Below are positions 3,226 to 62,515 of a stretch of DNA of 64,000 nucleotides, piece by piece; the first letter of the stretch is position 1; every line of letters starts with the position of its first letter. Source of the DNA: Somniosus microcephalus (lineage: Eukaryota). A program made the translations under genes and the position numbers. The DNA lies in NCBI GenBank assembly GCA_052327205.1, contig CM126226.1, positions 1,426,001 through 1,490,000 of the forward strand. The letters run 5' to 3'. The notes below the pieces were generated by a model. That model was not told the DNA's origin. It worked only from the letters and a program-made list of their open reading frames with translations, and did no database searches.

Positions 3226-4623
3226 CCACCTCACATTGCTGTTTGTGGGAGCTCACTTGGAGTACATTGGCTGCCGCGTTTCCCACACTAACACTGCTTC
3301 AGAAATACATCATTGGCTGGGAAGTATTTTGGGACGTCCTGAGAATGTGACAGGCGCTCTATAAATGCAAGTTATTTCCTTTCTTTCTTTGATATTCCCG
3401 CAACTTTGCTGCTCGTGTCTTTCTCAGTGTACAGGTCACAGGGGTGGGGAGGTACTGCCGAAGTAACCCCGGTGAATTGCTGCAGAGCCGTCTATTTTTT
3501 TCATTTATTTTCTTCCTTTCCCTGCCGCAGATATTACTTTTCAAACCCCCGCGGGCCCCTCCCCCCACGCGCCCCTCCCCCCGCGGGCCCCTCCCCCACG
3601 AGCCCCTCCCTCAATATCCATTTCCTATTACAGATTTGCAAATTGTGTTTTTAAGTTGCTCTTTCCTCCTTCCCCTCCCTCAAGCCCGCTGTATTAAAAG
3701 AACTGAATGTCAGTCATTCACTGTAAAGACCAGAAAATCTTCCTCTGCTAAATTTACGCTGTAAATAGGCTTCATGCCGTTTACCAGCCAGTCGCGTGCA
3801 TCGTGTTTCTTTATGGCTGAACATTAACGGGAAATCGGCACAAGTTTGCTGCCACTGGCATAAAATCTGGAACTGGCTCCCCCTAAAGGCTGTGGATTCT
3901 GGGGGCTAATTGAAACTTTCAGGGCTGAGATCGATAGATATTTGTTGGGTAAGGTTATCGGGAATGGGTGCAAAGGCGGGAAAATGGGTTTGAGGTACAG
4001 ATCAGCCATGATCCAATTGATGGAACAGGCTCGAGGGGCTGAATGGCCGTCTCCTGTTCCTATGCATGAGTTGTGACTGGTTTACAATGTCCCACTCGGA
4101 GGTGGGAAGATTGATTCGAAGCCAAAATCAGAGTAAGTTAATTTTAGCTTAAGTGGAAACTGTCAGCTGCTGTGCAAACGGGATAATCCTGAATGGTCAG
4201 GGATTTTTGATTGATATTTGTAAAGGTAGCGATAATTCTGTTTGTCTTTGCTGTTATATAACTGTCATGAATGGGAAAACTATTAGTTTTTACTTGGATC
4301 TACAGATCAACTGAAATATATAAGAGCAGTTGTCTGATGTTTCTATTAACATTCAGCATGTGTTGATCGTGTTTGCTGGCTGACAGATCATGTTAAATTA
4401 TAGCCGCTGTATTGTTGACCTGGAACGCTTTGATCTACTCATCCTGGCTGACCACAGCAAGATGATCAGGCCGAATTCTCTGAATCTGCCGGGGTTTGCG
4501 TACCTTGCAGTTTCTTGTATGCACATGTTTGTGGTGGTGTTGGATTGACTCCGCGGAGCACCTCGCTGGGCGGCAGGATGATTTTGTAGGTGCTAAAGTA
4601 ACATGCAAAATTGCATTCATTAG

Positions 4624-4725
4624 AAAGACCCATCTTTGACTGAGGACCAACTGAGGAAGGATGCGGCCATCTGGGAACTCTTGGGCTCAACGTCATCTCT
4701 TCTTAGGGCTAAACGATCCTCCAAG
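4624..4725 (+). CDS. Putative non-canonical HSPG2 exon N1: KDPSLTEDQLRKDAAIWELLGSTSSLLRAKRSSK
   Basis: ttcattAG|...AAG|GTagca, 102 nt, phase 0/0, open; shares a motif with the next candidate exon. The acceptor is weak, so the 5' boundary is uncertain. Confidence 0.5.
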
Positions 4726-5212
4726 GTAGCAGTGAGACTGCATGGCACAGTGTGGAGCATGAATCTGATTGACTGGGTAGTGCAAGCAATTTGTACAGTA
4801 GATTTAACCTCGTCCAATCCATCAATCTAGTACACAAGATTATTTCAGTTATTGTAAGAACTGCATTTTCATAATTCTTTCTTTTACCTCACCGCAAAAA
4901 CAGTATAATAAAAGCAATATATACTAGATCGTGTCCAATTCACTGTATAGCGTGTGTTGGCCAGCTGTGCTGTAAATGGAGCACGGGAATGACGAGCTAA
5001 GCTGTTGATGAGGGCCTAATATTAATGTCTGTAGAGATTGGAGACCAGTGTGTGTCATACATGTAGCTTCGGTCTTGGTACAAGTGGTGTTCAGCTGCCA
5101 TATAATGTACATGCCATTACATGCACCGCTTCTACATGAAGTGAACTGTCTTAGCTTCCGACACCAATTATTCAAACAACTTCCCCAAGAGCTTGAGTAA
5201 CCAGGTGTTGTA

Positions 5213-5670
5213 GAATCACACAGCACAGAAGGAGGCCGTTCGGCCCACCGTGCCTGTGCCAGCTCTCTCTGAAAGAGCTCTCCAATGAGTGCCGCTCCCC
5301 TGCTCTTTCCCAATAACCCTGCAAATTTCTCCTTTTTAATTATGTCTAATTCCCTTTTGAAAGTTACTATTGAATCTGCTTCAACACCCTTTCAGGTAGT
5401 GTATTCCAGATCACAACAACTCGCTGAGCTTAAAAAATATTCTCCATCACCCCCCAGTTCATTTGCCAATTATCTGAAATCTGTGTCCTCTGGTTACTGA
5501 CCATCCTGCCAGTGGAAACCGTTTCTCCCTGTCTACTCTATCAAAATCCCTCCTAATTTTGAACACCTCTATTAAACCTCCCCGTAACCTTCTCTGCTAT
5601 AAGGAGAACAATCACAGCTTCTCCAGTCTTTAAATATGACTGAAGTCCCTCACCCCTGGGACCAATCTGG
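5213..5670 (-). mobile_element. CR1/HER1-type LINE 3' fragment
   Basis: Tail CACAGAAGGAGGCCGTTCGGCCC plus decayed ORF2 end, similar to other CR1 copies in the window. Confidence 0.75.
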
Positions 5671-6226
5671 TTGTTGGCTGTGGTGCTGGTGAATGGCGAT
5701 GATCTGCTGCCTTTATCTACCAGCATCCTTTAAGCAAAGGTCGAGCCAAAACCTAACTGGACCCAAAGCATCACAATTATCCTTCACGGTTGGATCTCAA
5801 AATGAAGCAGGGAAAGGGTATATTAGCGCACCAGTAACCCTCTTAATTGTTTCTACAGCATGGTTTGGTCGTCTTGAGTGGTATTTTTGGTCTTAACACG
5901 ATGATTAACATTTGGAATAATTTGGACATTTAACCCTGGGTAACAATCCTTCAAAGGAAAGCAGTGAAAGCTGGATACGATTATGGGATACACTGATGTG
6001 GATAAATAAATTCATGAAACTAACTATAGAGGAAGCACTTCAAAAGCAGAAGAAAATTTACAGAACTTTTTTGAAAACAAACTGCACGATTAATCTTCAT
6101 TGCCTGTGTTGTGATTTCATTTGATGTTTAATATTTAGTACATTAGTGATGTGGTAAGCTCGTGGCTGGATTGCAGTGGTGACGCTTTTTAATGTAGAGA
6201 TGACTTGTTCCTTCACTTCCTTGTAG

Positions 6227-6529
6227 TCTGTGCCTGATCTGGAAGAACAGAAGCGTGTAGATGACGAGATATGGGCAATTATAACTGGCTTTACTGCTGA
6301 GCAGTTGCGCGGACCACACAATGCCACCTCATCCGGTGGTAGGAATCTGCCCCAGCCATCCTATCCATTGTCTCGACTGGCCTCAGCAGGTCCTGCTGGA
6401 CCTCCTGCTCCCTCTGCCTCTCGCAATACATCATCTCATTCCATACCCTCCTCTTCCTCTTCAAGAACCACTACTTCCCGTTCTTCTCGCCCCTCATCTC
6501 TGCTTTCTCATCCCGGCCACCACACAAAG
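6227..6529 (+). CDS. Putative non-canonical HSPG2 exon N2: SVPDLEEQKRVDDEIWAIITGFTAEQLRG...Ser/Pro-rich...PGHHTK (101 aa)
   Basis: Strong acceptor ttgttccttcacttccttgtAG, donor AAG|GTatgg, 303 nt, phase 0/0, no stop, not repeat-derived. Confidence 0.7.
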
Positions 6530-7574
6530 GTATGGAAATCTCGCTTCAGTGGGAAATGTAATCATCCATTTCAGGCAAATCCTTGCATTTATGGGATTAG
6601 TAAAAAGCCAAGTAACAGTTTTTGCATTGGGTAAAATGCCCAAAACTGTAATTAAAACCTGTGCATCAGGCCGGTTTCCAAGCTATCATCGTGTGATGTT
6701 TTGTGTCGAGCATACTGTCGATGAGGGCTATCACAAGTGGCAAGTAGTTGAGGGTCAACTGTGATATTAGCAAGTCGGGGATTGTAAAGATCGGATTTCA
6801 CATGGTCTAGTGGCAAAGTGTGCTGATGGCTTATACAGTGCCCCAAAGTGTGTGTTTGTGATATTGCGTCAATTTATCAACCTCCGTGGGGTCACCAGGA
6901 GAAGATAGAAACGGATTGGAGATGCTTCCCACCGAGAGGGGAAGTGAGAAGATGCAGAACTGGGATAGTTTTACACAAAGGCCAAAGATCAGTTCAAGGG
7001 TGGCATGGGTAGATGCTCAAAAACTGGCCAACGGTTCTCCTGCCCTCTGTCAGGGAATAAGAACCTCAAGAGAAAGCACACGCTTAAAACTGAGGCCGAT
7101 GGGGAAGCAAGATGTAATGTTCCCTGTTGTTAGATATCCACTCTTGAGCCTGCCCAAAGGGAGGGGTTTGATTCATATTAAAGTTGCAGTACGCTGAATC
7201 TATCAGCAGTTCCCCTCCTCCCACAAAATCTTATTTAATTATTGAGCAATACAAATTTGATACACATGCAGGTCATCGCCGATACAGAATATGTGCTGCT
7301 TTGCACGTGGCATGGTATTTCCACATTGAGGATCCTGTGCAGCTCTTCACACTTTGGTAGAGCTTCCTATTGACAGGGCCAGGATAATAATTTACCAAGG
7401 GTGCTCTGGCCTCAGGTGAGAGAGGAAGAGGTCGGGCGCTCTAATTTCCCATTGAGTTGTGGTGACACCCTTGTGAAGGGGCGAGCATGATTCAGTGGTC
7501 AGCAGCTGAGGCTTGGCGTGGATGGCATTGGGTTTGTATGAAGGTGTCTGATGTCTCCTGGTGTTTTTCTAGTT

Positions 7575-7975
7575 CTCCTGAGAGCAGAGAAGGTTAAGGG
7601 GGAGATTTAATAGAGATGTTCAAAATTATGAAGGGTTTTGATCGAGTAAATAAGGAGAAACTGTTTCCAGTGGCAGAAGGCCCAGTAACCAGAGGACACA
7701 AATTTAAGGTAATTGGCAACGGGACCAGAGACGAGATGAGAATTCTTTTACACAGTGAGATGTGATCTGGAACGCGCTGCCTGAAAGGGTGGTGGAAGCA
7801 GGTTTAATAATAACTTTCAAAAGGGAATTGGATATATACTTGAAGAGGAAAAATTTGCAGTGGTTTGGGAGGGGGAAAGGGCAAGGAAGTGGACCTAATT
7901 GGATAGTTCTTTCAAAGAGCCAGCACAGACATGATGGGCCAAATGGCCTCCTTCTGTGCTGTATCATTCTATGGT
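7575..7975 (+). mobile_element. CR1/HER1-type LINE 3' fragment
   Basis: IWNALPERVVEAG...FKRELDIYL motif and GGGCCAAATGGCCTCCTTCTGTGCTGTA tail. Confidence 0.85.
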
Positions 7976-8461
7976 GAGGTTTATGTGTTCATTTCCTTCA
8001 GCGGGATAATGTACTGATACGTCCTAAATAAGAATTTCTGGTTTGTAAGCTGGGAGTTCTTTGTGTGTACCCAATTTCCTTTCCTTCTATTGTTGACGGC
8101 CATTTGTGCCTTAGTCAGCACAACAGGAAAAAGTTTGTCTTGGTCAAATTTTTATCAGTGATTTGCCAGGTTAATGCATGTTGCTGGTCATGGTGTTAGA
8201 CTCGAGCTGCAGCCTAGATTGAGACCTCAGATACAGCAGAGGACGGGCAAGTGTTGGATGACCAGTCCGTGGCATGACGAGCCTGATGCTCCCCAGGTGA
8301 CTGCCTTCAGTTGGGTTCATGAAACTTCTTATTTATACGTGCCATTGAATGAATCAGGGAAGGATCTCTTCACTGAGGGGCTGCAGATACGTCCATAGAT
8401 TTTTCCACCCTTTTTGGTTAGAGGAGGATTAGCCAAATACAAAGAAAGTCACTGTAAATAT

Positions 8462-10450
8462 TACAACAGCAATATAGCGCCTTTAACATAGTAAAACGTC
8501 CCAAGGTGCTTCACAGGAGTGTTATAAATCAGAACATTGATACCGAGCCACATAAGGAGAAATTAAGGCAGATGACCAAAAGCTTGGTCAAAGAGAGGTA
8601 GGTTTTAAGGAGGATAGAGAGGTAGCGAGGCGGAGAGGTTTAGGCAGGGAATTCAGGCTTAGGGCCCAGGCAACAGAAGGCACGGCCACCAAAGGTTGAG
8701 CGATTATAATCAGGGATACTCAAGAGGGCAGAATTAGAGGAGCGCAGATATCTCGGGGGTGGGGGGGGAATTGTTGTAGGGCTGGAGGAGATTACAGAGA
8801 TAGGGAGGGGTGAGGCCATGGAGGGATTTGAAAACAAGGATGGGAATTTTGAAATCAAGGCGTTGCTTAACCGGGAGCCAATGTAGGTCAGTGAGCACAG
8901 GGGTGATGGGTGAATGGGACTTGGCGCGAGTTAGGACATGGACAGCCGAGTTTTAGATGACCTCAAGTTTACGTAGGGTAGAATGTGGGAGGCCGGCCAG
9001 GAGTGCGCTGGAATAGTCAAGTCTAGAGGTAACAAAGACATGGATGAGGGTTTCAGCAGCGGATGAGCTGAGGCAGGGGCGGCGACGGGCGATGTTATGG
9101 AGGTGGAAATAGGTGGTCTTAGTTATGCCATGATTATGTGGTTGGAAGCTCATTTCAGGGTCAAATATGATGCCAAGGTTGCGAGCAGTCTGGTTCAGCC
9201 TCAGACAGATGTTGGGGAGAGGGATGCAGTCAGTGGCTCGGGAACAGAGTTTGTGGCGGGAACCAAAAACAATGGCTTCAGTCTTACCAATATTTAATTG
9301 GAGAAAATTTCTGTTCATCCAGAACTGGATGTCAAACAAGTAGTCTGACAATTGAGAGACCGTGGCGTGATTGAGAGAAGAGGTAGTGAGGTAGAGCTGG
9401 GTGTCGTCAGCGTACATGTGGAAACTGACGCTGTGTTTTTGGATGATGTCGCCAAGGGGCAGCAGGTAGATGAGAAATAGGAGGGGGCCAAGGATAGATC
9501 CTTGGGGGACACCAGAGGTAACGATGCGGGAAGAGAAGCCATTGTAGGTGATTCTCTGGCTACGATTAGATAGATAAGAATGGAACCAGACGAGTACAGT
9601 CCCACCCAGCTGGATGATGGTGGAGAGACGTTGGAGGAGGATGGAGTGGTCAATTGTGTCAAAGGCTGCAGACAGGTCGAGAAGGACAAGGAGGGATAGT
9701 TTACCTTTGTCACAGTCACAAAGGATGTCATTTGTGGCTTTGAGAGATGTTGTGGCAAAGGGCGGAAACCTGATTGGAGGAATTCAAACATGGAATTGCA
9801 GGAAAGAATGGCATGGATTTGGGAGACGACAACACGTTCAAGGACTTTGGAGAGGAAAGGGAGGTTGGAGATGGGGGCGATAGTTTGCAAGGACAGAGGG
9901 GTCACGGGTTGGTTTTTTGAGGAGAGAGGTGATGATGGCAGATTTGAAGGAGAGGGGGACAGTACCTGAGGATAGCGAACCATTAACAATGTCAGTTAAC
10001 ATGGGAACCAGAAAAGGAAGTTGGGTGGTCAGCAGTTTAGTGAGAATAGGGTCGAGGGAGCAGAAAGTGGGTCTCACGGACATGATGAGCGTGGAGAGGT
10101 CATGAGGGGAGATCAGGCAGAGCGAAACTGGAGAAAATAATGAGTTCAGGGCTAGGGCGGAGGGGAACCTTAGAGGAAGTTTGGGCTAGGGGAAGGAAGG
10201 GAAATGGCAGGGGCAGCTGATCGGATGGTCTCAATCTTAGAGACAAAGAAGTCCATGAGCTCCTCACGCTTGTTGTTGGAGGCGAGGGTGGGGGAGTCGG
10301 GAGAGGGTTTTAAGAAGACGGTTAGTAATGAAGAATAGAAGCCGGGGTTTATCTTTGCATTCCAGAATGATTCTGGAACAGTGAGCAGTTTTGGCAGACG
10401 AGAGCTGGGCCCGATAGTGCTTTATGTGGTCCAGCCAGATCTGGCGGTGA
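8462..10450 (-). mobile_element. L2-like LINE, 5'-truncated, frameshifted RT
   Basis: Fragments NYRP/ISNLPFLSKVLE, QSGFR, YADDTQLY, FLQLNIGKTE and SRLDY in the ORF track. Confidence 0.92.
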
Positions 10451-10907
10451 ATGTTAGGATTACATATGCCAGTGTAATTTTATCCTAATAGTTTTTGTAA
10501 TCAAAATTTTGCGAAAGCTTGATCACTTGAAATTTTGAATTGAAATCTAGCTATCAGCCTTGGGCCCCATGCTGGGCTCCTGGTGCGTGCGGAATGATGC
10601 AGGACACGAAGGCTCTGGGTCTACCTACTCGCCATCTTGAATATTTGCTTTCATCAGGCAGAGCAACATCTGTCTGGGGAGGGGGGGAAAGCCAGGTAGA
10701 TTTCTCCTACTTGTACTGGAAATTGGGCAGCTGCAGAGGATTTCATGTTGGGCCTCCCTCGTCCTATTGATTGTGGAACGTTCCTGCCCTGCCTCACACA
10801 CGAGTAATCACTTAGACAAGAGCAGCCACTGTGAAGGCTAGTGTAAGCGCTCCACTGTCTGAGTCATGATGGGAAGGGAGAAGGTTGGGAGTTTAAAAAC
10901 AATGTTA

Positions 10908-11637
10908 TGGCCCAGAAATTCGGGTTGGGGGCTTCCCGCGGGTGCAAGCCTCCGACCTGCACTTACCTTGCGTGCCGGCCGTTGAGCTGTAGGGCCCCGT
11001 GGAATTCTGATCCGGGGCCTAGTCCAGCTGCCGGCGCGCAGTGCTTGCGTATCCCAGGGGCGCAGTTAGTTCGATGTGGGCCATGGGGAGCCAATCGGAG
11101 CAGGGAATGCTCCATTCATAAGTCTGACAGGAAGTGCTGTCAAGACTTATAAATACTACGGCCCCAAAATAGCACTAAACCTTCAAATAATTTTTTTTTT
11201 AAATCACATTTTTTAAATAAACTATAAATTACATGAAATAACTATTTTAAACAATTTAAATTTTTGAAAAACTAATTTGATATTCTAATGGGGCTAAAAA
11301 TAAACTTACCTTGCTTTAAAGTATTTAAAAATAATAAACCTGTTGAAAAAATGTTTTAATTTTAATTAATTCACCACTTACCTTGTAAAAAGCAGGCCTT
11401 ACGTCTGCTTTTTACATTTCTAAATTCTGCAGACTTACGTTCCCGGAGAAACCTGTATTAAAAAAAAAACCTAAGTTTGATGCGCACGCGTTCGACCTCT
11501 GAACCCCTGCTTTCAGAGGAACGGAAGTGCCGGTTTCCCGCGCATGCGCAGTGCGTACAGGAAACCGGCACTTCCATCGGGCCTACGGGTGAGTACCCCG
11601 TGCGTACTCACCCGCGGAGACCCGAATTTCTGGGCCA
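10908..11637. mobile_element. MITE-like non-autonomous element with perfect 17-bp terminal inverted repeats
   Basis: TGGCCCAGAAATTCGGG...CCCGAATTTCTGGGCCA; GC-rich hairpin arms, AT-rich core; related copy at 31742-32505. Confidence 0.8.
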
Positions 11638-11751
11638 TTTAATGTCCATGGTGTTGTTCTCAGTTTAGATGTGGGGATTTGCATTTTTTTAAACCAGTTC
11701 CATTATAAATTGATGAAATTAAGTATTGATTTTCTCTGCATGTATGTACAG

Positions 11752-11850
11752 ATGAGAAAGATTCCTCGGGTCCCTTCGCTGCCAGCTCAGGACTCATCAA
11801 ACCTAATTTCTTCCTCCATGTTGGGCCCAAGGCCTGCTGGCCTTGAGAAG
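11752..11850 (+). CDS. Putative non-canonical HSPG2 exon N3: MRKIPRVPSLPAQDSSNLISSSMLGPRPAGLEK
   Basis: ttttctctgcatgtatgtacAG|...AAG|GTagcc, 99 nt, phase 0/0, open. Confidence 0.55.
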
Positions 11851-11942
11851 GTAGCCGTGGTTAGCTTGTGCATGGAATATTCTAGTATCTCCGTGACCTT
11901 GTGCATGTCTCCGATGTGAATGACTTCAGAAAGCTGCCTAAG

Positions 11943-12165
11943 AACAGAAAATGCTGGAAATACTCAGCAGGTCGGGCAGCATCTGTGGAGAGAGAAACCG
12001 AGTTAATGTTTCAGGTCAATGATCTTTTTCCAGTTCTGATGTAAGGTCATTGACCTGAAATATTGACTCTGTTTCTCTCTCCACAGACACTGCCTGACTC
12101 GCTGAGTGTTTCCAGCATTGTCTGGTTTTATTTCCGATTTCCAGCATCCACAGAGTTTTGCTTTT
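11943..12165. mobile_element. Inverted pair of Penelope-like terminal repeats forming a long hairpin
   Basis: Left arm AATGCTGGAAATACTCAGCAGG...GTTTCAGGTCAATGA is reverse-complementary to right arm TCATTGACCTGAAA...GCTGAGTGTTTCCAGCATT; the same sequence flanks the Penelope ORF at 25250-25345. Confidence 0.8.
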
Positions 12166-14104
12166 GTATCAGAAAGCTGCTTGTTGGATTACAAATTCAA
12201 GACCTTTGGGCAAGATTTCCAGTCAGCAGGAGAAACTCTTCGAAGTGCCTGCAATCGTGGGCTGTTGTTGCAATTCACCTTGTAAACTGACCCAAAATAA
12301 TAAAAAACACATCAACAAAGCAGCATGTTTGCGTGCAAAGTAAGATGATGTAGAAAGTAACTTGAGATCACTGCAAAATGTAGGCCGTTCTGCATGAGGT
12401 TTTAGCATGATCAAACATCCCCTGCTGGCTATACTTATCTTTATCCCATTTGGTTTGAGTTTTAGTTGGAATTAATATGTGTGCGGTTTTGTTGTGATTG
12501 GCTCTGAAGTGCATGTTTGGACTTGAGATGTCCTGTTTACCCCGTGCCATTTGTGAATTATTAAAAGAGGGCTCTCATTGGCCACTGAGTTGGGGTGACA
12601 CCCTTGAGAAGGGGACCTGCCACACTTCTTCTGTCAACTGTTCTGAGTGCGGGAGATGTTCCGCTGGTCACCGTCTCTTCCAGAGCTTCCCGTCGGGAAA
12701 TAATATCGGCAGTCGGGTGTGTCCGCCCTAATGTGGCCGGCGTCTTCGAACTGCGTGGTAATGGCGGATTGATGTCGGGCATCACATTTTCCATCGGTTG
12801 CCCTGACAACGGTGGGTGGAAGGCAGGCCAGTTGGTGTAATTGGATTCCAGCATTGGTTTGGCAGGCAGGGGGGAGATTTACATTTTATTGGTTCCCTGA
12901 AGGAGGTACGGTGGTTTCAGGCAGCTTTTCAGCAAGGAAATGGAGCGCAGCCAAGAAACTTAACTGGATTTCCCCAGCCCTGTAATAAAAAAATATATAC
13001 AAAAACAAATTGACCTCCTATTCAGCAGCCCCACTCGCCCCTGAGGCCTGCAACAGCTATTTTCATCGTCACACCTCCCCTTCTCGCTGGGTTCCCCGCC
13101 ACAGGTGGGAATTCTGCCGGAAGCCTGCCAAACTTAACAAGAGTGAGGTTGCCTCTGGAATGTTTGCCAGCTTTATACCAGGTTTCTGCCAGTGGAAAAT
13201 CCCAGCTAAGGTTTTAGTGAAAGTTCCTGGCTGCTTCGAAAGAGATGGGAACTCCTTTAATTGTTATTAAAGATCAGTCCATGCCTTCCGATTTCTAATT
13301 GCCACAGTAAGTGGCAGGAATATTTCCTCCTTCGGTTAATTTTCACTGTACTTTAGAATAATAAATAGCCTGGATTTCAGAAGCCTGGGAAATTGCAGAG
13401 TGATGAAGATTTTTGAAAAGTTGGAGAAATTGGGGAAATAAAGTGAACCATTTTTCCAAGTGACCTTTCACCACCCATGTTTAGAACCTAGGGTGGTCTC
13501 CATTCAGAAAAAATACATTTCTTAGACCAGGCAGAAAAGTGTTTTCCATCTTTCATCCTCCTGATTACCACACAAGAAGCTTGTTGACATCTGCTTTTAT
13601 TCTTATCCAACAAGCTATCCATATCCTGGATTCTTAAAGCCATCATTTGTAAAATGAGACAGGCCCCTCGATGGAGGCTGGGAATCTTCCTGCTCAACTC
13701 CAGGTCGTCCCACCACCTCATACCCTTTTGGACAGGAAGGACCTGGGAGGACAAGCAGTGGGAAAGTTTCCACAGCTCTGCAGGAAGGCTTTGTGAGCTT
13801 TTAGCTAAGTCCCAGCCCGGGGTTCTTTGGTCTTAGAAACTCTACCTTGGTGCAGATTGGTATGTGCCGGATATGGGCCCACTTATCCGGCTGTGTATTC
13901 GATATCCGGCACATAGAAACTCTACCAGTTTACAGCTCTAAGTAGTTCAGCTTGGAGACTCTCGTGCTTATTGCTGGGTTTCTGTGCATGTCCAACACTA
14001 AGCTGACCACAAAGGGTAGAAAGTGGCAAATTAATCTTGCAATAAAAACAGAAAATGCTGGAGACACTCAGCAGGTCAGGCAGCATCTGAGGGGAGAGAA
14101 ACAG

Positions 14105-14141
14105 AGTTAACGTTTCAGGTCGGTGACCCTTCGTCAGAACT
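14105..14141 (-). ncRNA. Minimal type-I hammerhead ribozyme motif in a Penelope terminal-repeat remnant (14040-14145)
   Basis: Minus strand reads AGUU-CUGACGA-AGGGUC-ACC-GACCU-GAAAC-GUU-AACU: both core boxes, stem II, stem I (AGUU/AACU) and palindromic ACGU helix III. Confidence 0.7.
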
Positions 14142-14445
14142 GGTGTTCTTGGCATTGAATTAGTCTTGTGCTCAGTTCAGTATTTCCTTTGCTGAATAAT
14201 GTGGCTTTACTGAAGATACTGAACTTCTGATATACTATAATAATTTGGTAGCTTTAAAAAGGCCCTGCATTTTCTAATAATTCTATGAAACTCTCGTGTG
14301 TGTTTTATCAGCAGGGAATGGGGGACTTTGCTTCTTGAAACAATACTAGGGAAGGAATTTCAAAGCATGTCCTTGAATGTGCCATTGACTGCTGTTCTGT
14401 GTTTACTTTCTCTGTTCATCTTGTGTCTGCCTCTTCCTATCCCAG

Positions 14446-14529
14446 TATGCTCTGCTTTACAAGGGCTTCAGCCTCCTACCTGAAAACAATTTCTATTGGC
14501 AACTGCCTCACCAGTACCTGGGGAACAAG
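14446..14529 (+). CDS. HSPG2: Perlecan L4-type exon: YALLYKGFSLLPENNFYWQLPHQYLGNK
   Basis: Long pyrimidine tract then cccAG, donor AAG|GTaacc, 84 nt phase 0/0. FYWQLP..Y.G.K matches the L4 motif before VxxYGG (human FYWQLPETYQGDK). Confidence 0.88.
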
Positions 14530-14932
14530 GTAACCAGTGTTATCAAGTACTGAATTAGAAACCATATATTGGCACGTTTGTAGTTTGGATAATAATTCTA
14601 GCCGGTGTGAGTTATCTGCATGTTTTTAATTTAACATGACGGTGTCTTTGTTTTGAAGAGAGATTCATTGGTCGGTCTACGCTCTACGGCTGGGAGAGAA
14701 AGTGTTGGAGGCCTCTGGGTCTTGCAGCAGATCCTCTGGTACTGGTCAGAAAATCAGTGCAACTTTTGAATTCTCTTCATTGGTTGAGTTACCAAGCTCT
14801 TCAGGTGCAGGCTCACCCAAAGGACCATCATTGGTCAACAGCAGCACGAGAGTGAAGTGTTGACCAGAAGCCTCCATTAAGGAAGTTTGTCAAGAACATG
14901 TTTCATTTCATGTCTTTATCCATTGAGGCAGT

Positions 14933-15054
14933 GGGGGTCATTTTAGCTTAACCCGCCAGTGGGAAACTGACGGACACACCCAGCCCGATCGAAGTCAGCG
15001 GAGAGTTGGAGTGTAAAGTTGCGGTTGACCCGGGGTTCAGTTAAAATGACTCCC
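14933..15054. mobile_element. Small MITE-like element
   Basis: Imperfect terminal inverted repeats GGGGGTCATTTTAGC / GTTAAAATGACTCCC. Confidence 0.5.
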
Positions 15055-15152
15055 TATGTCTTGGCACGTGGCCACTATTTTGACCCATGCAAGTCCTCCT
15101 TACAGGATCTTGAACAAGAACTGAAGTAGGTTTGTCGATGCTAAGCCAGTTT

Positions 15153-16755
15153 TGGTGTTGCCTGATGTAGATGAGATGGTGTTGTCTGATGTAGATGAGA
15201 TCGTGTTGTCTGATGTAGATGAGGAGATGGTGTTGTCTGATGTAGATGAGGATGGTGTTGTCTGATGTAGATGAGGAGATGGTGTTGTCTGATGTAGATG
15301 AGGAGATGGTGTTGTCTGATGTAGATGAGGAGATGGTGTTGTCTGATGTAGATGAGGAGATGGTGTTGTCTGATGTAGATGAGGAGATGGTGTTGTCTGA
15401 TGTAGATGAGGAGATCGTGTTGTCTGATGTAGATGAGATGGTGTTGTCTGATGTAGATGAGATGGTGTTGTCTGATGTAGATGAGGATGGTGTTGTCTGA
15501 TGTAGATGAGGATGGTGTTGTCTGATGTAGATGAGGAGATGGTGTTGTCTGATGTAGATGAGGATGGTGTTGTCTGATGTAGATGAGGATGGTGTTGTCT
15601 GATGTAGATGAGATGGTGTTGTCTGATGTAGATGAGATGGTGTTGTCTGATGTAGATGAGGATGGTGTTGTCTGATGTAGATGAGATGGTGTTGCCTGAT
15701 GTAGATGAGATGGTGTTGTCTGATGTAGATGAGGTGGTGTTGTCTGATGTAGATGAGGAGATGGTGTTGTCTGATGTAGATGAGGAGATGGTGTTGTCTG
15801 ATGTAGATGAGGTGGTGTTGTCTGATGTAGATGAGGATGGTGTTGTCTGATGTAGATGAGGAGATGGTGTTGTCTGATGTAGATGAGGAGATGGTGTTGT
15901 CTGATGTAGATGAGGATGGTGTTGTCTGATGTAGATGAGGAGATGGTGTTGTCTGATGTAGATGAGGAGATGGTGTTGTCTGATGTAGATGAGGAGATGG
16001 TGTTGTCTGATGTAGATGAGGATGGTGTTGTCTGATGTAGATGAGGAGATGGTGTTGTCTGATGTAGATGAGATGGTATCTGATGTAGATGAGGAGATGG
16101 TGTTGTCTGATGTAGATGAGATGGTGTTGTCTGATGTAGATGAGATGGTGTCTGATGTAGATGAGGAGATGGTGTTGTCTGATGTAGATGAGATGGTGTT
16201 GTCTGATGTAGATGAGATGGTGTTGTCTGATGTAGATGAGGAGATGGTGTTGTCTGATGTAGATGAGATGGTGTCTGATGTAGATGAGGAGATGGTGTTG
16301 TCTGATGTAGATGAGATGGTGTTGTCTGATGTAGATGAGATGGTGTTGTCTGATGTAGATGAGGATGGTGTTGTCTGATGTAGATGAGGAGATGGTGTTG
16401 TCTGATGTAGATGAGGAGATGGTGTTGTCTGATGTAGATGAGGAGATGGTGTTGTCTGATGTAGATGAGGAGATGGTGTTGTCTGATGTAGATGAGGAGA
16501 TGGTGTTGTCTGATGTAGATGAGGAGATGGTGTTGTCTGATGTAGATGAGGAGATGGTGTTGTCTGATGTAGATGAGATGGTGTTGCCTGATGTAGATGA
16601 GATGGTGTTGCCTGATGTAGATGAGATGGTGTTGTCTGATGTAGATGAGGATGGTGTTGTCTGATGTAGATGAGATGGTGTTGTCTGATGTAGATGAGAT
16701 GGTGTTGTCTGATGTAGATGAGATGGTGTTGTCTGATGTAGATGAGGAGATGGTG
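15153..16755. repeat. Minisatellite with 21/24/25/27-bp unit variants (GATGTAGATGAG[GAG]ATGGTGTTGTCT), about 60 copies
   Basis: Read directly; source of the 574 and 637 aa low-complexity ORFs. Confidence 0.97.
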
Positions 16756-17516: not shown

Positions 17517-18680
17517 AGAAACATCGAAGATAGGAGCAGGAGTAGGCCCTTCGGCCCCTCGCGCCTGCTCCGCCATTTAATGAGATCATGGCTGATCATC
17601 CAAATTCAGTACCCTGTCCCTGCCTTCTCCCCATATCTCTTGATCCCTTTAGCCTTAAGAAATATATCTAACTCTTTCTTGAATATCTTTAATGAATTGG
17701 CTTCTGTGGTAGAGAATTCCACAGGTTCACCACTCTTTGGGTGAAGAAATTCCTCCTCATCTCAGTCCTAAATGGCTTACCCCTTATCCTTAGACTGTGA
17801 CCCCTGGTGCTGGACTCCCCCGCCATCGGGAACATCCTTCCTGCATCTAGTCTGTCTAGTCCTGTTAGAACTTTATAAATTTCAATGAGATCCCCTCTCA
17901 TTCTTCTAAACTCGAACGAATATAAGCTTAATCGACCCAATCTCTCCTCATATGTCATTCCTGCCATCCCAGGTATCAGTCTGGTGAATCTTCGCTGAAC
18001 TCCTTCCATGGCAAGAACATCCTTCCTCAGATAAGGTGACCAAAACTGCACACAATACTCAAGGTGTGGTTTCACCAAGGCCCTGTACAACTGCAGCAAG
18101 ACATCCTTGCTCCTGTACTCTAATCCTCTCGCTATGAAGGCCAACATACCATTTGCCGCCTTAACCGCCTGCTGCACCTGCATGCTTACCTTCAGCGACT
18201 GGTGCACAAGGACACCCAGGTCTCGTTGCACTTCCCCTTTTCCCAATCTATTGCCATTCAGATAATAATCTGCCTTCCTGTTTTTGCCACCAAAGTGGAT
18301 AACCTCGCATTTATCCACACTATACTGCATCTGCCATGTATCTGCCCAACCACCCAACCTGTCCAAATCATACTGGAGTTTCTCTGCATCCTCCTCACAG
18401 CACACACGCCCACCCAGCTTTCTGTCATCTGCAAACTTGGAGATATTACATCTAGTTCCCTCGTCTAGATCATTTATATATATTGTGAATAGCTGGGGTC
18501 CTAGCACCGATCCCTGCGGTACCCCACTAGTCACTGCCTGCCACTTGGAAAAAGACCCATTTATTCCAACTCTTTGCTTCCTGTCTGCCAACCAGTTCTC
18601 TATCCAAGACAGTACCTTACCCCAAATCCCGTGTGCTTTAACTTTACACGCCAATCTCTTATGCAGGACCTTATCGAAAG
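17517..18680 (-). mobile_element. CR1 LINE, 5'-truncated, inserted into an L2 fragment
   Basis: 351-aa ORF with GVPQGSVLGP, KFADD, HLEYCVQFWSP; L2 sequence stops at about 17517 (CCTTGGGCGACA) and resumes at about 18682 (ACACCAGAGGTAACG). Confidence 0.95.
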
Positions 18681-19000
18681 TACACCAGAGGTAACGATGT
18701 GGGAGCAGGAAGAGGAGCCATTGCAGACCAATAGCCCAACACACTGTAATTTATTAAACTGTCTATACTTACCTACCAATTCATAAAGGAATGCTAACGA
18801 AGGAGTGATAGCAGTCAAACAATGAATATTTCTCGTTAACAGAACCAGACTGTGCCAACTATGTAACAAAATCTACAAATAAATTAGGAGCAAGGTTTAA
18901 AGCCTGTAATTATACTTGGGTAATGGGCCAGGTGTATATCAGAAATGATGGATGTAGCACATGTCATCTTTTACTTTCATTAATAACTGAAAGGATACAA

Positions 19001-21161: not shown

Positions 21162-21254
21162 GTGACTTCTTACGGTGGACTCCTTCGGTACACACTCTCC
21201 TATGATGCAGGGTTCCGGGGTTCCACGGTACCTGACGCTGACGTGCAGATCATT
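21162..21254 (+). CDS. HSPG2: Perlecan domain III (L4-3) exon: VTSYGGLLRYTLSYDAGFRGSTVPDADVQII
   Basis: cacAG/GTaagt, 93 nt phase 0/0; matches human VAAYGGKLRYTLSYTAGPQGSPLSDPDVQIT. Confidence 0.96.
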
Positions 21255-21764: not shown

Positions 21765-22535
21765 CACTCAAGTACCAGGCAATGACTATCCCCAACAAGC
21801 GAGAGTCTAACCACCTCCCCTTGACATTCAATGACATTAACATCACTGAATCCCCACCATCGATATCCTGAGAATCACCATTGTCCAGAAACTTAACTGG
21901 ACCAGCCACATAAATACTGTGGCTACAAGAGCAGGTCAGAGGCTGGGTATTCTGTGGCGAGTGTCTCACCTCCTGACTCCCCAAAGCCTTTCCACCATCT
22001 ACAAGGCACAAGTAAGGAGTGTGATGGAATACTCTCCACTTGCCTGGGTGAGTGCAGCTGCAACAACACTCGAGAAGCACGACACCATCCAGGACAAAGC
22101 AGCCTGTTTGATTGGCACCCCATCCACCACCTTAAACATTCACTCCCTCTACCACAGGCGCAGTGTGGTAGAGTACCACAGGCGCAGTACCATCTACAAG
22201 ATGCACTGCAGCAACTCGCCAAGGCTTCTTCGACAGCATCTCCCAAACCCGCCACCTCTACCAACTAGAAGGACAAGGGCAGCAGGCGCATGGGAACACC
22301 ATCCCCTCCAAGTCACACACCATCCTGACTTGGAAATATATCGCCGGTCCTTCATCGTCGCTGGGTCAAAACCCTGGAACTCCCTCCCTAACAGCACTGT
22401 GGGAGTACCTTCACCACACGGACTGCAGCGGTTCAAGAAGGCGGCTCACCACCACCTTCTCAAGGGCAACTAGGGATGGGCAATGAATGCTGGCCTTGCC
22501 AGCGATGCCCAGATCCCATAAACGAATAAAAAATA
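21765..22535 (+). mobile_element. CR1-superfamily non-LTR retrotransposon 3' part (distinct family)
   Basis: 184-aa ORF RAGQRLGIL...IYKAQVRSVMEYS...WNSLP, 3' UTR ending AATAAAAA; decayed copy near 3360-3490 on the minus strand. Confidence 0.85.
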
Positions 22536-24617: not shown

Positions 24618-24701
24618 GGTAATGACATCACCCTGGTGAGCTACCACCATCACCAGCTGCAGCCAAGGGAGACCCAGTCCTTCGAGGTCATGTTCAAGGA
24701 G
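24618..24701 (+). CDS. HSPG2: Perlecan L4-3 exon: GNDITLVSYHHHQLQPRETQSFEVMFKE
   Basis: tttcAG/GTaaag, 84 nt phase 0/0; human counterpart GNNIMLVASQPALQGPERRSYEIMFRE. Confidence 0.95.
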
Positions 24702-27359: not shown

Positions 27360-29002
27360 GGTGCGTACGGCAGTGTGAATAGTAATTAGCACGGTGAGTA
27401 CGGCAGTGTGAATAGTAATTAGTACGGTGCGTACGGCAGTGTGAATAGTGATTAGTACGGTGAGTACGGCAGTGTGAATAGTGATTAGTACGGTGAGTAC
27501 GGCAGTGTGAATAGTGATTAGTACGGTGCGTACGGCAGTGTGAATAGTGATTAGTACGGTGCGTACGGCAGTGTGAATAGTAATTAGCACGGTGAGTACG
27601 GCAGTGTGAATAGTAATTAGTACGGTGCGTACGGCAGTGTGAATAGTGATTAGTACGGTGAGTACGGCAGTGTGAATAGTAATTAGTACGGTGAGTACGG
27701 CAGTGTGAATAGTGATTAGTACGGTGAGTACGGCAGTGTGAATAGTGATTAGTACGGTGAGTACGGCAGTGTGAATAGTAATTAGTACGGTGAGTACGGC
27801 AGTGTGAATAGTGATTAGTACGGTGAGTACGGCAGTGTGAATAGTGATTAGTACGGTGAGTACGGCAGTGTGAATAGTGATTAGTACGGTGAGTACGGCA
27901 GTGTGAATAGTAATTAGTACGGTGAGTACGGCAGTGTGAATAGTGATTAGTACGGTGCGTACGGCAGTGTGAATAGTGATTAGTACGGTGCGTACGGCAG
28001 TGTGAATAGTGATTAGTACGGTGCGTACGGCAGTGTGAATAGTGATTAGTACGGTGAGTACGGCAGTGTGAATAGTGATTAGTACGGTGCGTACGGCAGT
28101 GTGAATAGTGATTAGCACGGTGAGTACGGCAGTGTGAATAGTGATTAGTACGGTGAGTACGGCAGTGTGAATAGTGATTAGTACGGTGCGTACGGCAGTG
28201 TGAATAGTGATTAGTACGGTGCGTACGGCAGTGTGAATAGTGATTAGTACGGTGAGTACGGCAGTGTGAATAGTGATTAGTACGGTGCGTACGGCAGTGT
28301 GAATAGTGATTAGTACGGTGAGTACGGCAGTGTGAATAGTGATCAGTACGGTGAGTACGGCAGTGTGAATAGTGATTAGCACGGTGCGTACGGCAGTGTG
28401 AATAGTGATTAGCACGGTGCGTACGGCAGTGTGAATAGTGATCAGTACGGTGAGTACGGCAGTGTGAATAGTGATTAGCACGGTGCGTACGGCAGTGTGA
28501 ATAGTGATTAGCGCGGTGCGTACGGCAGTGTGAATAGTGATTAGCACGGTGAGTACGGCAGTGTGAATAGTGATTAGCGCGGTGCGTACGGCAGTGTGAA
28601 TAGTGATTAGTACGGTGAGTACGGCAGTGTGAATAGTGATTAGCACGGTGCGTACGGCAGTGTGAATAGTGATTAGCACGGTGAGTACGGCAGTGTGAAT
28701 AGTGATTAGCGCGGTGCGTACGGCAGTGTGAATAGTGATTAGCACGGTGCGTACGGCAGTGTGAATAGTGATTAGCGCGGTGCGTACGGCAGTGTGAATA
28801 GTGATTAGCACGGTGCGTACGGCAGTGTGAATAGTGATTAGCACGGTGAGTACGGCAGTGTGAATAGTGATTAGTACGGTGAGTACGGCAGTGTGAATAG
28901 TGATTAGCACGGTGAGTACAGCAGTGTGAATAGTGATTAGTACGGTGAGTACGGCAGTGTGAATAGTGATTAGTACAGTGAGTACGGCAGTGTGAATAGT
29001 GA
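27360..29002. repeat. 33-bp minisatellite, about 50 copies (GTACGGCAGTGTGAATAGTGATTAGTACGGTGA)
   Basis: Read directly; gives the ([12 protein letters not shown])n ORF. Confidence 0.98.
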
Positions 29003-29415: not shown

Positions 29416-29646
29416 CAATTTTGGAAGCGGCCGGATGGTCAGCAGGCCACCCGGGAACATCTCCTGATGGTCCTCGCAGACTTGGATGAAGTTCTTATCC
29501 GTGCTACCTACTCGACCGACATGATCTCCGCCAGCCTCTCCGATGTGAGCATGGAGATTGCAGTGCCCTTCTACACCAATCTGGGGCAGGCACTGCAAGT
29601 GGAAGAATGTCGCTGCCCCCTGGCATACCATGGCTTGTCTTGTCAG
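29416..29646 (+). CDS. HSPG2: Perlecan L4-3 end / LE exon: QFWKRPDGQQATREHLLMVLADLDEVLIRATYS...VEECRCPLAYHGLSCQ
   Basis: ttcAG/GTgact, 231 nt phase 0/0; human EFWRRPDGQPATREHLLMALADLDELLIRATFS. Confidence 0.98.
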
Positions 29647-38016: not shown

Positions 38017-38641
38017 CACCTGTCCCTGGATTCCCCCCCCCTGTGGCCACCTGTCCCTGGATTCCCCCCTGTGGCCACCTGTCCATGGATTCCCCCCTGT
38101 GACCACCTGTCCATGGTTCCCCTCCGTGGCCACCTGTCCATGGTTTCCCCCCCCCCCCCCCCCCGTGGCCACCTGTCCATGGATTCCCCCACCCCCCGTG
38201 ACCACCTGTCCATGGATTCCCCCCCGTGGCCACCTGTCCATGGATTCCCCCCCCGTGACCACCTGTCCATGGATTCCCCCCCCGTGGCCACCTGTCCATG
38301 GATTCCCCCCCCCCGTGACCACCTGTCCATGGATTCCCCCCCGTGACCACCTGTCCATGGATTCCACCCCCCCCCCCCGTGGCCACCTGTCCATGGATTC
38401 CCCCCTGTGACCACCTGTCCATGGTTTTCCCCCGTGACCACCTGTCCATGGATTCCCCCCTGTGACCACCTGTCCATGGATTTCCCCCCCCCCCGCCCCG
38501 TGGCCACCTGTCCATGGATTCCCCCCCGTGACCACCTGTCCATGGTTTTCCCCCGTGGCCACCTGTCCATGGTTCCCCCCCGTGGCCACCTGTCCCTGGA
38601 TTCCCCCCCGTGGCCACCTGTCCATGGTTTCCCCCCGTGGC
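38017..38641. repeat. About 28-bp minisatellite with variable C-tracts (GTG[G/A]CCACCTGTCCATGGATT-Cn), about 21 copies
   Basis: Read directly; source of the Gly-rich minus-strand ORFs. Confidence 0.95.
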
Positions 38642-40022
38642 CCAGGCCTGCTCCTGGCTGGGCCATACCACTGAAAATTGGGGGGGAAATCTGTGTGAAG
38701 CTGCAGGATTCTCAGGCCTGTGGCCGTGCTTCATATTTTCCCACTGATGTTGAGTAAAATAATTTAAGACTTGCTTCATGACCTCCGACCTGCCCCTGAA
38801 CCTTTACAGATCTTCCAGTCAACCAACACCATCAAAACTTAACCAGTCATTTATTTCACTACTGTTTGTGGGAGCTTGCTGTGCGCAAATTGGCTGCCGT
38901 GTTTTCTCCATTACAACGGTGACTCCCCTTAAAAAGTACTTCATTGGCTGTGAAGAGCTTTGCAGCGTCCTGAGGATGTGAAAGATGCGATATTGGGGAT
39001 CCGAGGGCAGATCCTCGCACCCAGTAATCGTCAGGGGCCTGGCACTGAGGCTGGAGGACTGGTCCTGTTCCTACTGCAGATTGTGGGAAGGCCCCAGGGA
39101 GTGCCAGGCTGTACAATGGGAGTAGACGCCTGGTGTAATGCGTCCCCACTGTTTTTTTCCTCTTCCCTGCGCCTGGAAATGAGAAAATCCCCCGTTATTT
39201 TGAAAATATAATGCAAATTATTATAATCTTGTGCATTTCCCCCTCATTTTGGCCCACCATTGATGGCCATGGCTTAGGCCGTGTAGTTCCCACGCTCTGT
39301 AATTCCCTCCCTATACTCCTCTGCCTCTCCACCACCACCTCCTCCTTTGAGTCCCTCCTTTAAACCCATCTCTTTGATCAAGTGTTTAGTCGTCCCACCT
39401 AATCGCCCCTTTTTTGGCTTCGAGGCCCATTTTGATGACGTCTCTGTGAAGAACCTTGGGCGGTTTTTCCACGTTAATGCACCTGATTTGAGAGTCTTAC
39501 TGATGCGAGTAGCCTGCGAGGGTTTCCTAACTAATGAAGGGTCACAAGTTGAAGCCCATTCGTTTCAACCCTCGTGCCCTCACTGGGGCTTTAGCTGCAT
39601 TGTGTGGGTGCTGAGTTAGAACATGATGTGGCAGGAAACCTTCTGAGGAGTCAGAGCTGGAAGTTAACTGCACAGATCTCTTGCTCTCCACACACGGATG
39701 GTCAGTGGTCTGATTGTTAATAAAAGTGCCTAATAGAAATATTGAAATAGGTTTTATTCATTTAAAAATAATACTAGTTAACTATTTAATAGGAGAGCGA
39801 CTGATCGCGATCAGAAGGACATCAGGGCTAGATTGGAATTTCCCTGGACCTGCTGCCAATCTACGGGTTAAATAAAGGCAACTGAAGTCTCTTGAAAGTA
39901 CTCATGACATATTTTACATTGGCCAGATTTGACTCTGTTCTTTGTTTATGTTGGATAAAATAAATAGCCTGTAAGAAAAAGCTCAATAGCATACACATAA
40001 CTAGATTTACTCTCTTCTTTAG

Positions 40023-47595: not shown

Positions 47596-47776
47596 TCGCC
47601 AGCGTACACGCTGGTGTGGACCCGTCAGCTCGGGGGAAAACTCCCAAACACCGCTGTGGACTTCAATGGAATCCTGACCATCCGCAATGTTCGCCCGGAG
47701 GATGCTGGCGTCTACATCTGCACAGGCTCCAACATGTTTGCAATGGACGAGGGGACTGCTGTCCTACACGTGCCAG
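47596..47776 (+). CDS. HSPG2: Perlecan domain IV second Ig module, exon b: SPAYTLVWTRQLGGKLPNTAVDFNGILTIRNVRPEDAGVYICTGSNMFAMDEGTAVLHVP
   Basis: ttctAG/GTtcgt, 181 nt phase 0/1; SPAYTLVWTR, DFNGILTIRNV and CTGSNMFAMD identical to human. Confidence 0.98.
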
Positions 47777-49297
47777 GTTCGTGATCTGCACCATTAAGTA
47801 CTCATCATCCTCTCCTCCCATGGTGCATGGCATTCCACCTACTGCCCCCCTGTGCCCTTTGCCCTGTGACCTGCAAACAGCACTGCACTTTGACCTACAC
47901 ATTACGTCTCTCTGTTCTTCCGCACTCTGCTTTCTCTGTGCTGTGGCTGACCCCTTGCTTCACCTGTTTCAATGTTCTAGCTGCAGCTTTGTCTTAGACT
48001 TTTCTGATCTAGTTTGTCTTTTTTTCCCCCTTTTTATTTTTTTTATTTGACCCCTTTAGTACAATCTGGCCCTGTTAAATAAATTAAATTGAGATATTTA
48101 TAGTGAGTGAATTTGATTTTAGTAAATAATAGGAACTTTTTTGGGGGGGGGGGGGGAAGTTGGAGAGTTTTTTTTAGCTAACTTTCTTTGTTCTCATCCA
48201 GGTTTTATTTTAGTTTTGTTCGCCCCGCGCAGAGCTTAAAGGACGCTAGTTAGTTTCAACATGGCTGGCAGTCCCCACGGAAATCCTTGGTCTGAAGTTT
48301 CTGCGCAGCGTTAGCGGGACCTAAATTCTGGGTCATAGCCTGTTCCCAAATGGAGATGGCAATCTCCAGAGGGTCTCGGTGAGGCCTGTCTTAGCATTCT
48401 GCCACAGCTGCAATCTGAAGGGGAAAAAAGAGGGGCACTGGAGGCCCTGAACTGATTTGTTTTTCTATAATGTCCTCATCTGTAGACTTCTACTGACCAT
48501 ATCAAGATTGTCTCTGCAGGTCATCCTTCAAGGGCTTAGCTAGAGCCATTCATGTAGCAGGCATGTCGAGTTGCTCATTAATTCAGGGCAGTCGGGGTTA
48601 GTGCAGTAGCAGTGCCATCTATAAAGATTTTTGCTGGGCAAGGGTGTTGAGGGTTATGGAACCAAGGCGGGTAGATGGAGTTAAGCTACAGTTCAGCCAT
48701 GATCTAACTGAATGGCGGAACAGGTTGTTGGGGCTGAATGGCCTCCTCCTGTTCCAATGTGCAGTAGTTGTTCTGCGACCTGACTATAATTGAACACTGG
48801 TATGAAATGGTCTGAACACCAGTACTGTAACTCATCATAATCTACTGCTCCTTACAGATGTAGGTCAGAGCTTCTGAAAATAGAGTCTCTTGCAATTAAA
48901 ATGATTTTTATGCCCCTTTTGAAATGTGAAAACCAAAATATATGTAGTTTCAATATTTTTACTTTTTATTAAATCTACTTCCTTCATTTACACAATCATT
49001 GTTTACACCGCACATTGTAACTTGTAGATAATTTACATACTGTATATTTGATATATTTCTAGCCTGTGGGGAGCTGTGGTACCTTATAATTGCTAGCGTT
49101 TGAAACCCGGCTACACAACCATTCGATTTACAGAACCCCACCCCTCCACTTAGATTAGTTCCACGTGGCAGACCCTAGTTGTAGGAACTGATACTTTAGC
49201 CGGACAGTTAAAATCCAGCTTTGTGATGTGAAACCTTCTACCTGTAAAAGCTGGGGTAGAGTTGGTCGGGAGGCCTCAGAATCTTGATGGGTAAAGT

Positions 49298-49475
49298 GCC
49301 GGGTCATCTCCCCGGTGCTCCGGGTCATGTCCCCCCCCCCCCCCGGTGTCCCCCCCCGGTGCTCCAGGTCATGTCCCCCCCGGTGCTCCGGGTCATGTCC
49401 CCCCCCCGGTGCTCCGGGTCATGGCCCTGGTGCTCCGGGTCATGGCCCCGGTGCTCCGGGTCATGGCCCTGGTGT
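49298..49475. repeat. Short GC-rich tandem repeat (CCGGTGCTCCGGGTCATG[T/G]CCCC), about 7-8 copies
   Basis: Read directly. Confidence 0.85.
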
Positions 49476-62512: not shown

Positions 62513-62515
62513 AGT

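Follow-up and report, generated by a model that had tools for sequence, protein, structure and literature searches.

Tissue-regulated splicing adds function to basement-membrane and matrix proteins through the z exons of agrin and the EDA and EDB exons of fibronectin, and likewise through the alternative exons of Caenorhabditis elegans unc-52. The events in these three genes involve the gain or loss of entire Ig or FN3 modules or of short peptides, and we know of none among them that imports its own convertase sites together with a spare copy of a host-domain motif. Here we describe a block of five exons, E0 to E4, that would do both in perlecan (gene HSPG2), a core basement-membrane proteoglycan whose gene underlies Schwartz-Jampel syndrome and dyssegmental dysplasia of the Silverman-Handmaker type (DDSH). 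The block lies in Somniosus microcephalus, within and 0.5 kb upstream of what we call the window, the whole stretch of 64,000 nucleotides (nt) that was analysed (contig CM126226.1 of assembly GCA_052327205.1, forward strand; G000:C25:1426001-1490000 in this 6.4-Gb genome); the upstream 120 kb were added, so that 184 kb were examined. The reading that we think probable on balance is that the block is tissue-regulated and adds a 209-residue loop to the third L4 module (L4-3) of domain III, and that furin cuts this loop twice to give a two-chain perlecan held together by an LE-domain disulfide and by shared beta-strands.

Passages of PMC6266596 describe human perlecan as having few known splice variants, of unknown function, unlike worm unc-52, and list miniperl and mast-cell forms of domains I and V among HSPG2 variants whose function is likewise unknown. 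As described there, these forms come from the same gene and are truncations in domains I or V, not a multi-exon insertion in L4-3. An RBPMS-regulated exon of rat Hspg2, 51 nt long according to one supplement row of PMC6613909, was considered as a part of the cassette and set aside: a single exon of 51 nt, as that row gives it, fits no part of the rat insert (whose borders are themselves inferred), and from the primer we infer a different event near domain I. Glypicans are heparan sulfate proteoglycans that a furin-like cut turns into two disulfide-linked subunits (furin passage of PMC4859157, which does not deal with perlecan; the excerpt of PMC9010944 does not mention furin either). As far as that passage goes, the glypican site lies in constitutive sequence, whereas the perlecan sites would occur only in a spliced-in isoform and their cleavage is predicted. 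L4 domains themselves are described as being of unknown function in an excerpt of PMC6744579. The literature searched held no description of the cassette, although subscription HSPG2 papers, bioRxiv supplements, splicing tables, GENCODE and VastDB may record its exons.

Five cassette exons inside an intron of L4-3

The exons of the block and the two canonical exons that flank it are as follows.

Canonical L4-3 exon, G000:C25:1422699-1422893 (L002:6699-6893): 195 nt, 3.1 kb upstream of the window, with the W-LP..GDK motif
E0, G000:C25:1425491-1425529 (L002:9491-9529): 39 nt, 13 residues, 0.5 kb upstream of the window, with furin-type site 1
E1, 4624..4725, + strand: 102 nt, 34 residues, a predicted helix with an I-W-E-L-L motif followed by furin-type site 2
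E2, 6227..6529, + strand: 303 nt, 101 residues, a conserved predicted helix followed by a Ser/Pro/Thr-rich arm
E3, 11752..11850, + strand: 99 nt, a 33-residue linker with a conserved Asn in a Q-D-S-S-N-L-like motif
E4, 14446..14529, + strand: 84 nt, 28 residues that duplicate the final 28 of the canonical exon
Canonical VTSYGG exon of L4-3, 21162..21254, + strand: Laminin_B positions 13-43, its acceptor common to the skipped and included forms

A sequence-only reading of the window had proposed a chain of four exons, and these stand as described: E1 to E4 are each bounded by AG..AAG/GT, open and of phase 0/0, and they join into 196 residues that run in frame into VTSYGG at 21162. The count did not stand, as the chain has five members and E0, outside the window, had been missed. 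Taken together, E0 to E4 encode 13+34+101+33+28 = 209 residues in order and in phase, with intact splice dinucleotides and no frame-breaking change, and the block is symmetric in phase, so that the flanking exons can be joined with or without it. Splice signals alone do not prove these exons, because a loose scan of the intron returned near-equal numbers of phase-0 open candidates on the two strands (forward 80, with 7 distinct AAG donors; reverse 72, with 4) and because the acceptor of E1 is poor (-4.4; that of E0 is strong, 9.1).

Homology is what identifies the exons as real. Profiles built for each exon from 24-27 non-shark inserts were scanned against 10,601 six-frame segments of the 184 kb, and each exon ranked first for its own profile (E0 1.2e-4, E1 1.8e-12, the start of E2 6.4e-5, E3 1.8e-3, E4 3.2e-16), with matches falling at or close to the exon borders and the E0 locus being the sole match of the E0 profile. 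Identity to a Mustelus gene model amounts to 158/209 residues (E0 12/13, E1 31/34, E2 70/101, E3 20/33, E4 25/28); E0 is identical at 12/13 positions to three shark models, and E1 at 28-31/34 to shark and ray models.

The host gene is perlecan. Residues 161-2099 of Mustelus perlecan can be placed in order (tblastn) on the 120 kb that precede the window and on the window itself, the modules are collinear (LDLa, Ig, three L4/LE repeats, then the Ig array), and both the Laminin_B profile (PF00052) and the L4 fold were found for the host module. The L4 strands that the sequence-only reading could not find are not absent; they sit in the canonical 195-nt exon upstream of the window, which does already end in YYWQLP..GDK before a GT donor and is in phase with both the VTSYGG exon and E0. 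The exon chain thus falls within a canonical intron that spans 24,268 nt from the GDK exon to the VTSYGG exon; the corresponding introns of L4-1 and L4-2 measure 4.2 and 3.6 kb.

Two interpretations of the chain had been offered from the sequence, a cassette inside domain III and an alternative N-terminus, and the evidence supports the former: wherever a full-length model was examined, the block came after the canonical GDK exon. Under the latter, an intronic promoter would yield a short perlecan made of the rest of L4-3 plus domains IV-V; such a product would fit the length of this intron relative to its counterparts, the W-LP motif that E4 could supply to a short form, the ATG with which E3 begins, and the short human HSPG2 transcripts mentioned in a passage of PMC6266596. 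We nevertheless hold it to be highly improbable. The canonical exon upstream can be spliced to VTSYGG in phase, the E0 acceptor is strong, E0, E1, E2 and E4 contain no Met, and the best 9-residue hydropathy in the cassette exons is 1.7, so that none carries a signal-peptide-like stretch. Moreover, marker motifs of the block fall within the first 200 residues in 0 of the collected proteins longer than 1000 residues, and a start inside the block would lose the first L4 strands and LE Cys1-3. The canonical exon and E0 upstream, together with the orthologous internal inserts described below, thus mark the block as an internal cassette.

Orthologous inserts and isoforms

Searching with a canonical exon provided the starting point, a frog perlecan and a sturgeon fragment that carry an insert between GDK and V..YGG; a motif-gap screen of 154 proteins flagged 7, of which 2 were true inserts (frog and sturgeon) and 2 were pattern misses or broken models. 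Region searches gave 34 matches among 419 candidates and 694 matches among 2590 candidates, the best 120 of the 694 being listed. Among the 186 proteins parsed, 4 failed, 17 had no insert and 165 had one, and after one broken elephant model was dropped there remained 164 proteins, all predicted gene models, with 108 distinct inserts. These come from chimaera, sharks, rays, bichir, sturgeon, gar, teleosts, coelacanth, amphibians, turtles, squamates, ostrich, opossum and placentals, with rat and loris models seen as well and no listed sequence named as human; because the sequences were picked by similarity to the insert, their counts show range, not frequency. Both peptide and position are conserved in the orthologues, from chimaera to mammals at the level of protein models. 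The insert measures 209 residues in the Chiloscyllium, Stegostoma and Mustelus models, equal to the sum of E0 to E4 here.

As the sequence-only reading had guessed, automated gene models already include these exons. The insert has the same position, order and motifs in predicted isoforms of Mustelus (XP_078095298.1), Chiloscyllium (XP_072442898.1), Callorhinchus (XP_042199708.1), Latimeria (XP_064423963.1), Xenopus (XP_031762630.1) and rat (XP_038967229.1), and the RefSeq and GenBank isoforms that bear it have automatic isoform numbers and no named feature. RNA-seq junctions underlie RefSeq isoforms. Gene models of other species show the block both included and skipped: 10 Mustelus isoforms with the insert and 5 without it are found among 15 listed of 16, and Dendropsophus has 11 with and 4 without, of 15. 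The cassette is ancient and present in the automated annotations of many genomes, yet apparently undescribed. Its presence there lessens the surprise. A cassette with invariant residues kept from chimaeras to rodents and primates is a strong sign of an overlooked isoform, and should the human gene contain its exons, they would be relevant to patients whose disease is unsolved.

The composition of the insert bears on whether the block works as a whole. All five parts are present in 51/84 non-mammalian inserts and E0-E1-E2-E4 in 19/24 rows binned as mammalian, E3 having no counterpart in most mammalian models, and partial forms, in which E4 stands alone (sturgeon P0270, eel P0321) or E1, E2 or E3 is skipped, are a minority. 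These partial forms, and a conservation of E4 close to that of the canonical copy, would suit a reading in which the E4 swap is the sole functional unit and changes the L4-3 surface, E0 to E3 being a tolerated spacer in varying combinations. That reading is improbable in our judgement, as the full set is the commonest form and near-invariant residues are found both in E0 and in the helix of E2.

Other searches set the limits of the distribution. A search with the E2 peptide among proteins of 178-2000 residues returned 0 matches in 2225 candidates, a null explained by full-length perlecans falling outside that length range; an ESM Atlas search with E2 gave no usable match, and Pfam has no family for E1, E2 or E3. 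The distant, probably invertebrate perlecans examined had no insert; the evidence that this offers is weak, and neither lamprey nor hagfish was identified among the sequences. As side observations, one-residue differences at cassette junctions (P0007 cluster, P0205, P0368) suggest tandem acceptors, and one Chiloscyllium-cluster insert of 196 residues has the length of the block without E0.

Furin-type motifs, a duplicated segment and a predicted two-chain perlecan

The insert carries two furin-type motifs, which the sequence-only reading of the exon content had missed. Site 1 is R-I-R-R at residues 7-10 of E0, and site 2 lies in the window as follows.

Furin-type site 2, 4705..4716, + strand: R-A-K-R followed by S-S, at the end of E1

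The columns of site 1 hold Arg in 86/89, a basic residue in 89/89 and Arg in 84/89 inserts; the site is complete in 66/66 non-mammalian E0 and in 17/22 mammals (mammalian site counts follow the removal of one reptile-like row from the mammal bin), and in percomorph fish it is kept while the rest of E0 diverges. Site 2 has P4 Arg in 88/96, P1 Arg in 87/96 and P2 Lys or Arg in 74/96 inserts, with P3 and the preceding residues variable, and is complete in 56/62 non-mammalian E1. Across the 108 proteins, R-x-K/R-R occurs 153 times in 17,732 insert residues (8.6 per 1000) versus 26 times in the 423,975 other residues (0.06 per 1000), and not once in two skipped frog isoforms. What the insert presents is therefore an R-x-K/R-R motif in a secreted protein with P4, P2 and P1 conserved, in mammals only partly so. 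The furin optimum is given as RX(R/K)R in a passage of PMC3285362. Judged by these motifs, furin cleavage at both sites is likely. A few residues after site 1 an N-glycan sequon occurs in 21/22 rows binned as mammalian and 33/62 others, and is absent in the shark models seen; it could modulate cleavage. Separately, the shark perlecan models P0205 and P0212 have a further furin-type motif of four Arg at residue 48, near the N-terminus of domain I.

Beyond the sites, the E2 helix is marked by D-x-E-I-W-x-L/I-x-x-x-F, with Asp in 98/98 and Trp in 100/100 inserts, and is followed by an arm of 76 residues, among them 21 Ser, 11 Pro and 6 Thr; the arm contains two N-glycan sequons and a single Ser-Gly. 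The E2 profile also matches E1 (E 9.4e-4), so the two helices probably arose by duplication. E3 keeps its Asn in 75/77 inserts, and the insert as a whole has no Cys.

E4 consists of a strand and a W-LP..G-x-K motif, and its profile also matches the three canonical L4 motifs. The sequence-only reading had missed that E4 duplicates the final part of the canonical exon and is distinct from that exon. Mean column conservation is 0.73 for E4 against 0.76 for the canonical copy, and Pfam places the end of E4 at Laminin_B 1-12 (weakly, E 0.16), just where the next exon takes over at 13-43. Mutually exclusive tandem-duplicated exons were considered and rejected, since the original motif, part of a larger exon, is kept in all 108 distinct insert-bearing sequences; with both copies present in the same sequences, any swap would occur at the protein level.

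Two AlphaFold models were made, one of a coelacanth slice (27 rows) and one of a Mustelus slice (49 rows, using 48 diverse of 94 intended). The coelacanth model, with a mean predicted local distance difference test score (pLDDT) of 42.7, is too poor for use alone. In the Mustelus model (mean pLDDT 62.6; L4 core 84-94) the W-LP..G-x-K segment of E4 scores 79/79 and the canonical W-LP..GDK segment 51/55, the canonical strand before the motif is kept (87), and E0, E1 and the start of E2 form helices (68-76), with site 1 where a predicted helix ends and site 2 in a low-pLDDT coil. The model keeps the fold of the L4 host domain (PF00052; Z 21-27), superposing on the perlecan region-3 crystal 9I5B (of the pair 9I5A/9I5B) with Z 27.1 and a root-mean-square deviation of 2.1 Å over 201 residues, and on laminin alpha-2 L4b (4YEP/4YEQ) with Z 21; the solved L4 chains found, of 185-397 residues, align without a comparable insert.

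Two further canonical exons complete L4-3.

Canonical L4-3 exon, 24618..24701, + strand: placed by tblastn
Canonical exon closing L4-3, 29416..29646, + strand: with Cys4-Cys6 of the interrupted LE domain

The latter matches the perlecan crystal 9I5A/9I5B with E 4.7e-21. LE cysteines pair 1-3, 2-4, 5-6 and 7-8, and the L4 insertion leaves this pairing intact (excerpt of PMC6744579). Here Cys1-3 lie upstream of L4-3 and Cys4 downstream (our numbering), so that a cut within the insert would leave the chains linked.

The donor flanks of the cassette exons contain TGCATG, which is their top hexamer.

TGCATG, 4739..4744, + strand: 14 nt after the E1 donor
TGCATG, two copies, 11869..11907, + strand: 19 and 52 nt after the E3 donor, with one more at 11737, upstream of E3
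TGCATG, 14617..14622, + strand: 88 nt after the E4 donor

We take TGCATG to be the RBFOX element; RBFOX sites downstream of an exon promote its inclusion in muscle and neurons. The hexamer lies no more than 100 nt after the donor in 3/5 cassette exons versus 3/36 approximately placed canonical exons (Fisher p 0.017, post hoc), and on these elements we are evenly divided as to whether cassette inclusion is driven by RBFOX in muscle or nerve.

Drawing these observations together, we propose the following course. The block is very likely alternatively spliced in Somniosus too, skipping giving ordinary perlecan and inclusion a precursor with the 209-residue insert. In that precursor E4, directly before VTSYGG, would probably replace the canonical W-LP..GDK segment, and with E4 in that place L4-3 would still fold while the rest loops out. 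A proprotein convertase would then, as we consider rather probable, cut after R-I-R-R in E0 and R-A-K-R in E1 and free a 34-residue E0/E1 peptide, and LE Cys2 on the N-terminal side and Cys4 on the C-terminal side would hold the cut chains together. The new N-terminus of the C-chain might, more tentatively, show the invariant E2 helix as a binding site, carried by a flexible arm that is probably glycosylated, with E1, apparently a paralogue of that helix, acting as a pro-piece to be removed. To arrive with protease sites of its own and a spare host-domain motif would be an unusual way for an insert to add function without breaking the fold. Stretching this further, it is conceivable, if less than probable, that all jawed vertebrates, mammals included, make a second, two-chain perlecan by a muscle or nerve splice switch, with a furin-released peptide and a binding helix on an arm; that the displaced canonical W-LP segment docks into an L4 of a neighbouring perlecan or laminin we think quite unlikely.

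Several observations weigh against the two-chain account. In mammals site 2 is complete in 0/21, with R-x-x-R in 11/21, and site 1 is broken in 5/22 (dog, otter, loris, marmot, Kogia), so that cleavage is not universal. Residues of the site 1 helix are conserved beyond the motif, and binding could explain that conservation. The coelacanth model slightly favours the canonical copy over E4 (53-62 versus 38-53), the first half of E4 is unfolded in the Mustelus model (pLDDT 37), and the LE parts score below 50 there, so that the disulfide is not shown by the model. The orthologous support consists of gene models that were predicted, rather than of proteins; counts over the 108 inserts, which are related to one another and similarity-picked, are not independent; and the RBFOX enrichment test was chosen after the fact.

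Chiefly on account of the eroded mammalian sites, the main rival is a cassette that is spliced in and left uncut, its basic motifs and three helices forming an intact binding module looped out of L4-3, with heparan sulfate, some acidic protein of the matrix or a receptor as candidate ligands. Conservation of E0 beyond the four motif positions, in a stretch predicted to be helical and amphipathic, speaks for such a module, as do the several mammals that have the cassette without a complete motif at both sites. Against it, only P4, P2 and P1 of site 2 are retained, within a stretch that is variable and of low confidence, which is the pattern expected of a convertase site, and the rest of perlecan is nearly devoid of R-x-K/R-R; we rate the uncut module as unlikely, though well ahead of the other alternatives.

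RNA reads and the surrounding sequence

Two raw RNA runs with the same species label (X5 and X6), of each of which 24-31% of the length was read, were mapped to 4300-14950 (90%) and, for X6, to 4300-7500 (98%). They add to the points against the two-chain account, as no cassette junction reached the listing threshold in the portions of X5 and X6 that were read. Over 4300-14950 the joint and loose-end tables were filled by repeats, and X6 at 4300-7500 gave no joints, with 6/13 loose-end rows seen, all at a repeat. Sense-strand depth in X6 reached 6.6, 20.6 and 11.9 on E2, with the bins on either side at 0.2-1.0. E2 alone rose above background, however, E1 having 2.0 versus 1.5-1.7 just upstream and the E4 bin 0.45; common read starts and ends in X6 suggest few independent molecules, and in X5 the bins of E1, E2 and E4 contained no reads.

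The missing junctions, together with the weak E1 acceptor and weak donors, could be taken to mean that the exons are relics or noise in Somniosus and are never spliced in. This we find scarcely credible, as all five exons are open, in phase, in order and close in sequence to the Mustelus model, and as the RNA comes from two runs only, each read over part of its length.

X6 also has intronic sense-strand reads at 4942-5155 (depth ~5) and 14624-14950 (depth ~1.9), possibly from pre-mRNA or duplicated molecules; no conserved peptide was recognised by eye in 14600-15100. The repeat region 7500-12400 shows very deep RNA and DNA coverage drawn from other copies.

Elsewhere in the window, 47773-64000 contains no Mustelus perlecan exon match at an identity of at least 55%, and may be a long domain IV intron or hold diverged exons. 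The upstream 120 kb contain 500 N bases and the window 0. Open reading frame (ORF) fragments at 2182-2979, 8640-10185, 17689-18750 and 21850-22473 resemble LINE reverse transcriptases. Intronic tandem arrays occupy 343-1904, 15153-16755, 27360-29002, 38017-38642 and 62516-63998, with units of 25, 27, 33, ~28 and 30 bases; they reach ~63 copies and give rise to long spurious ORFs.

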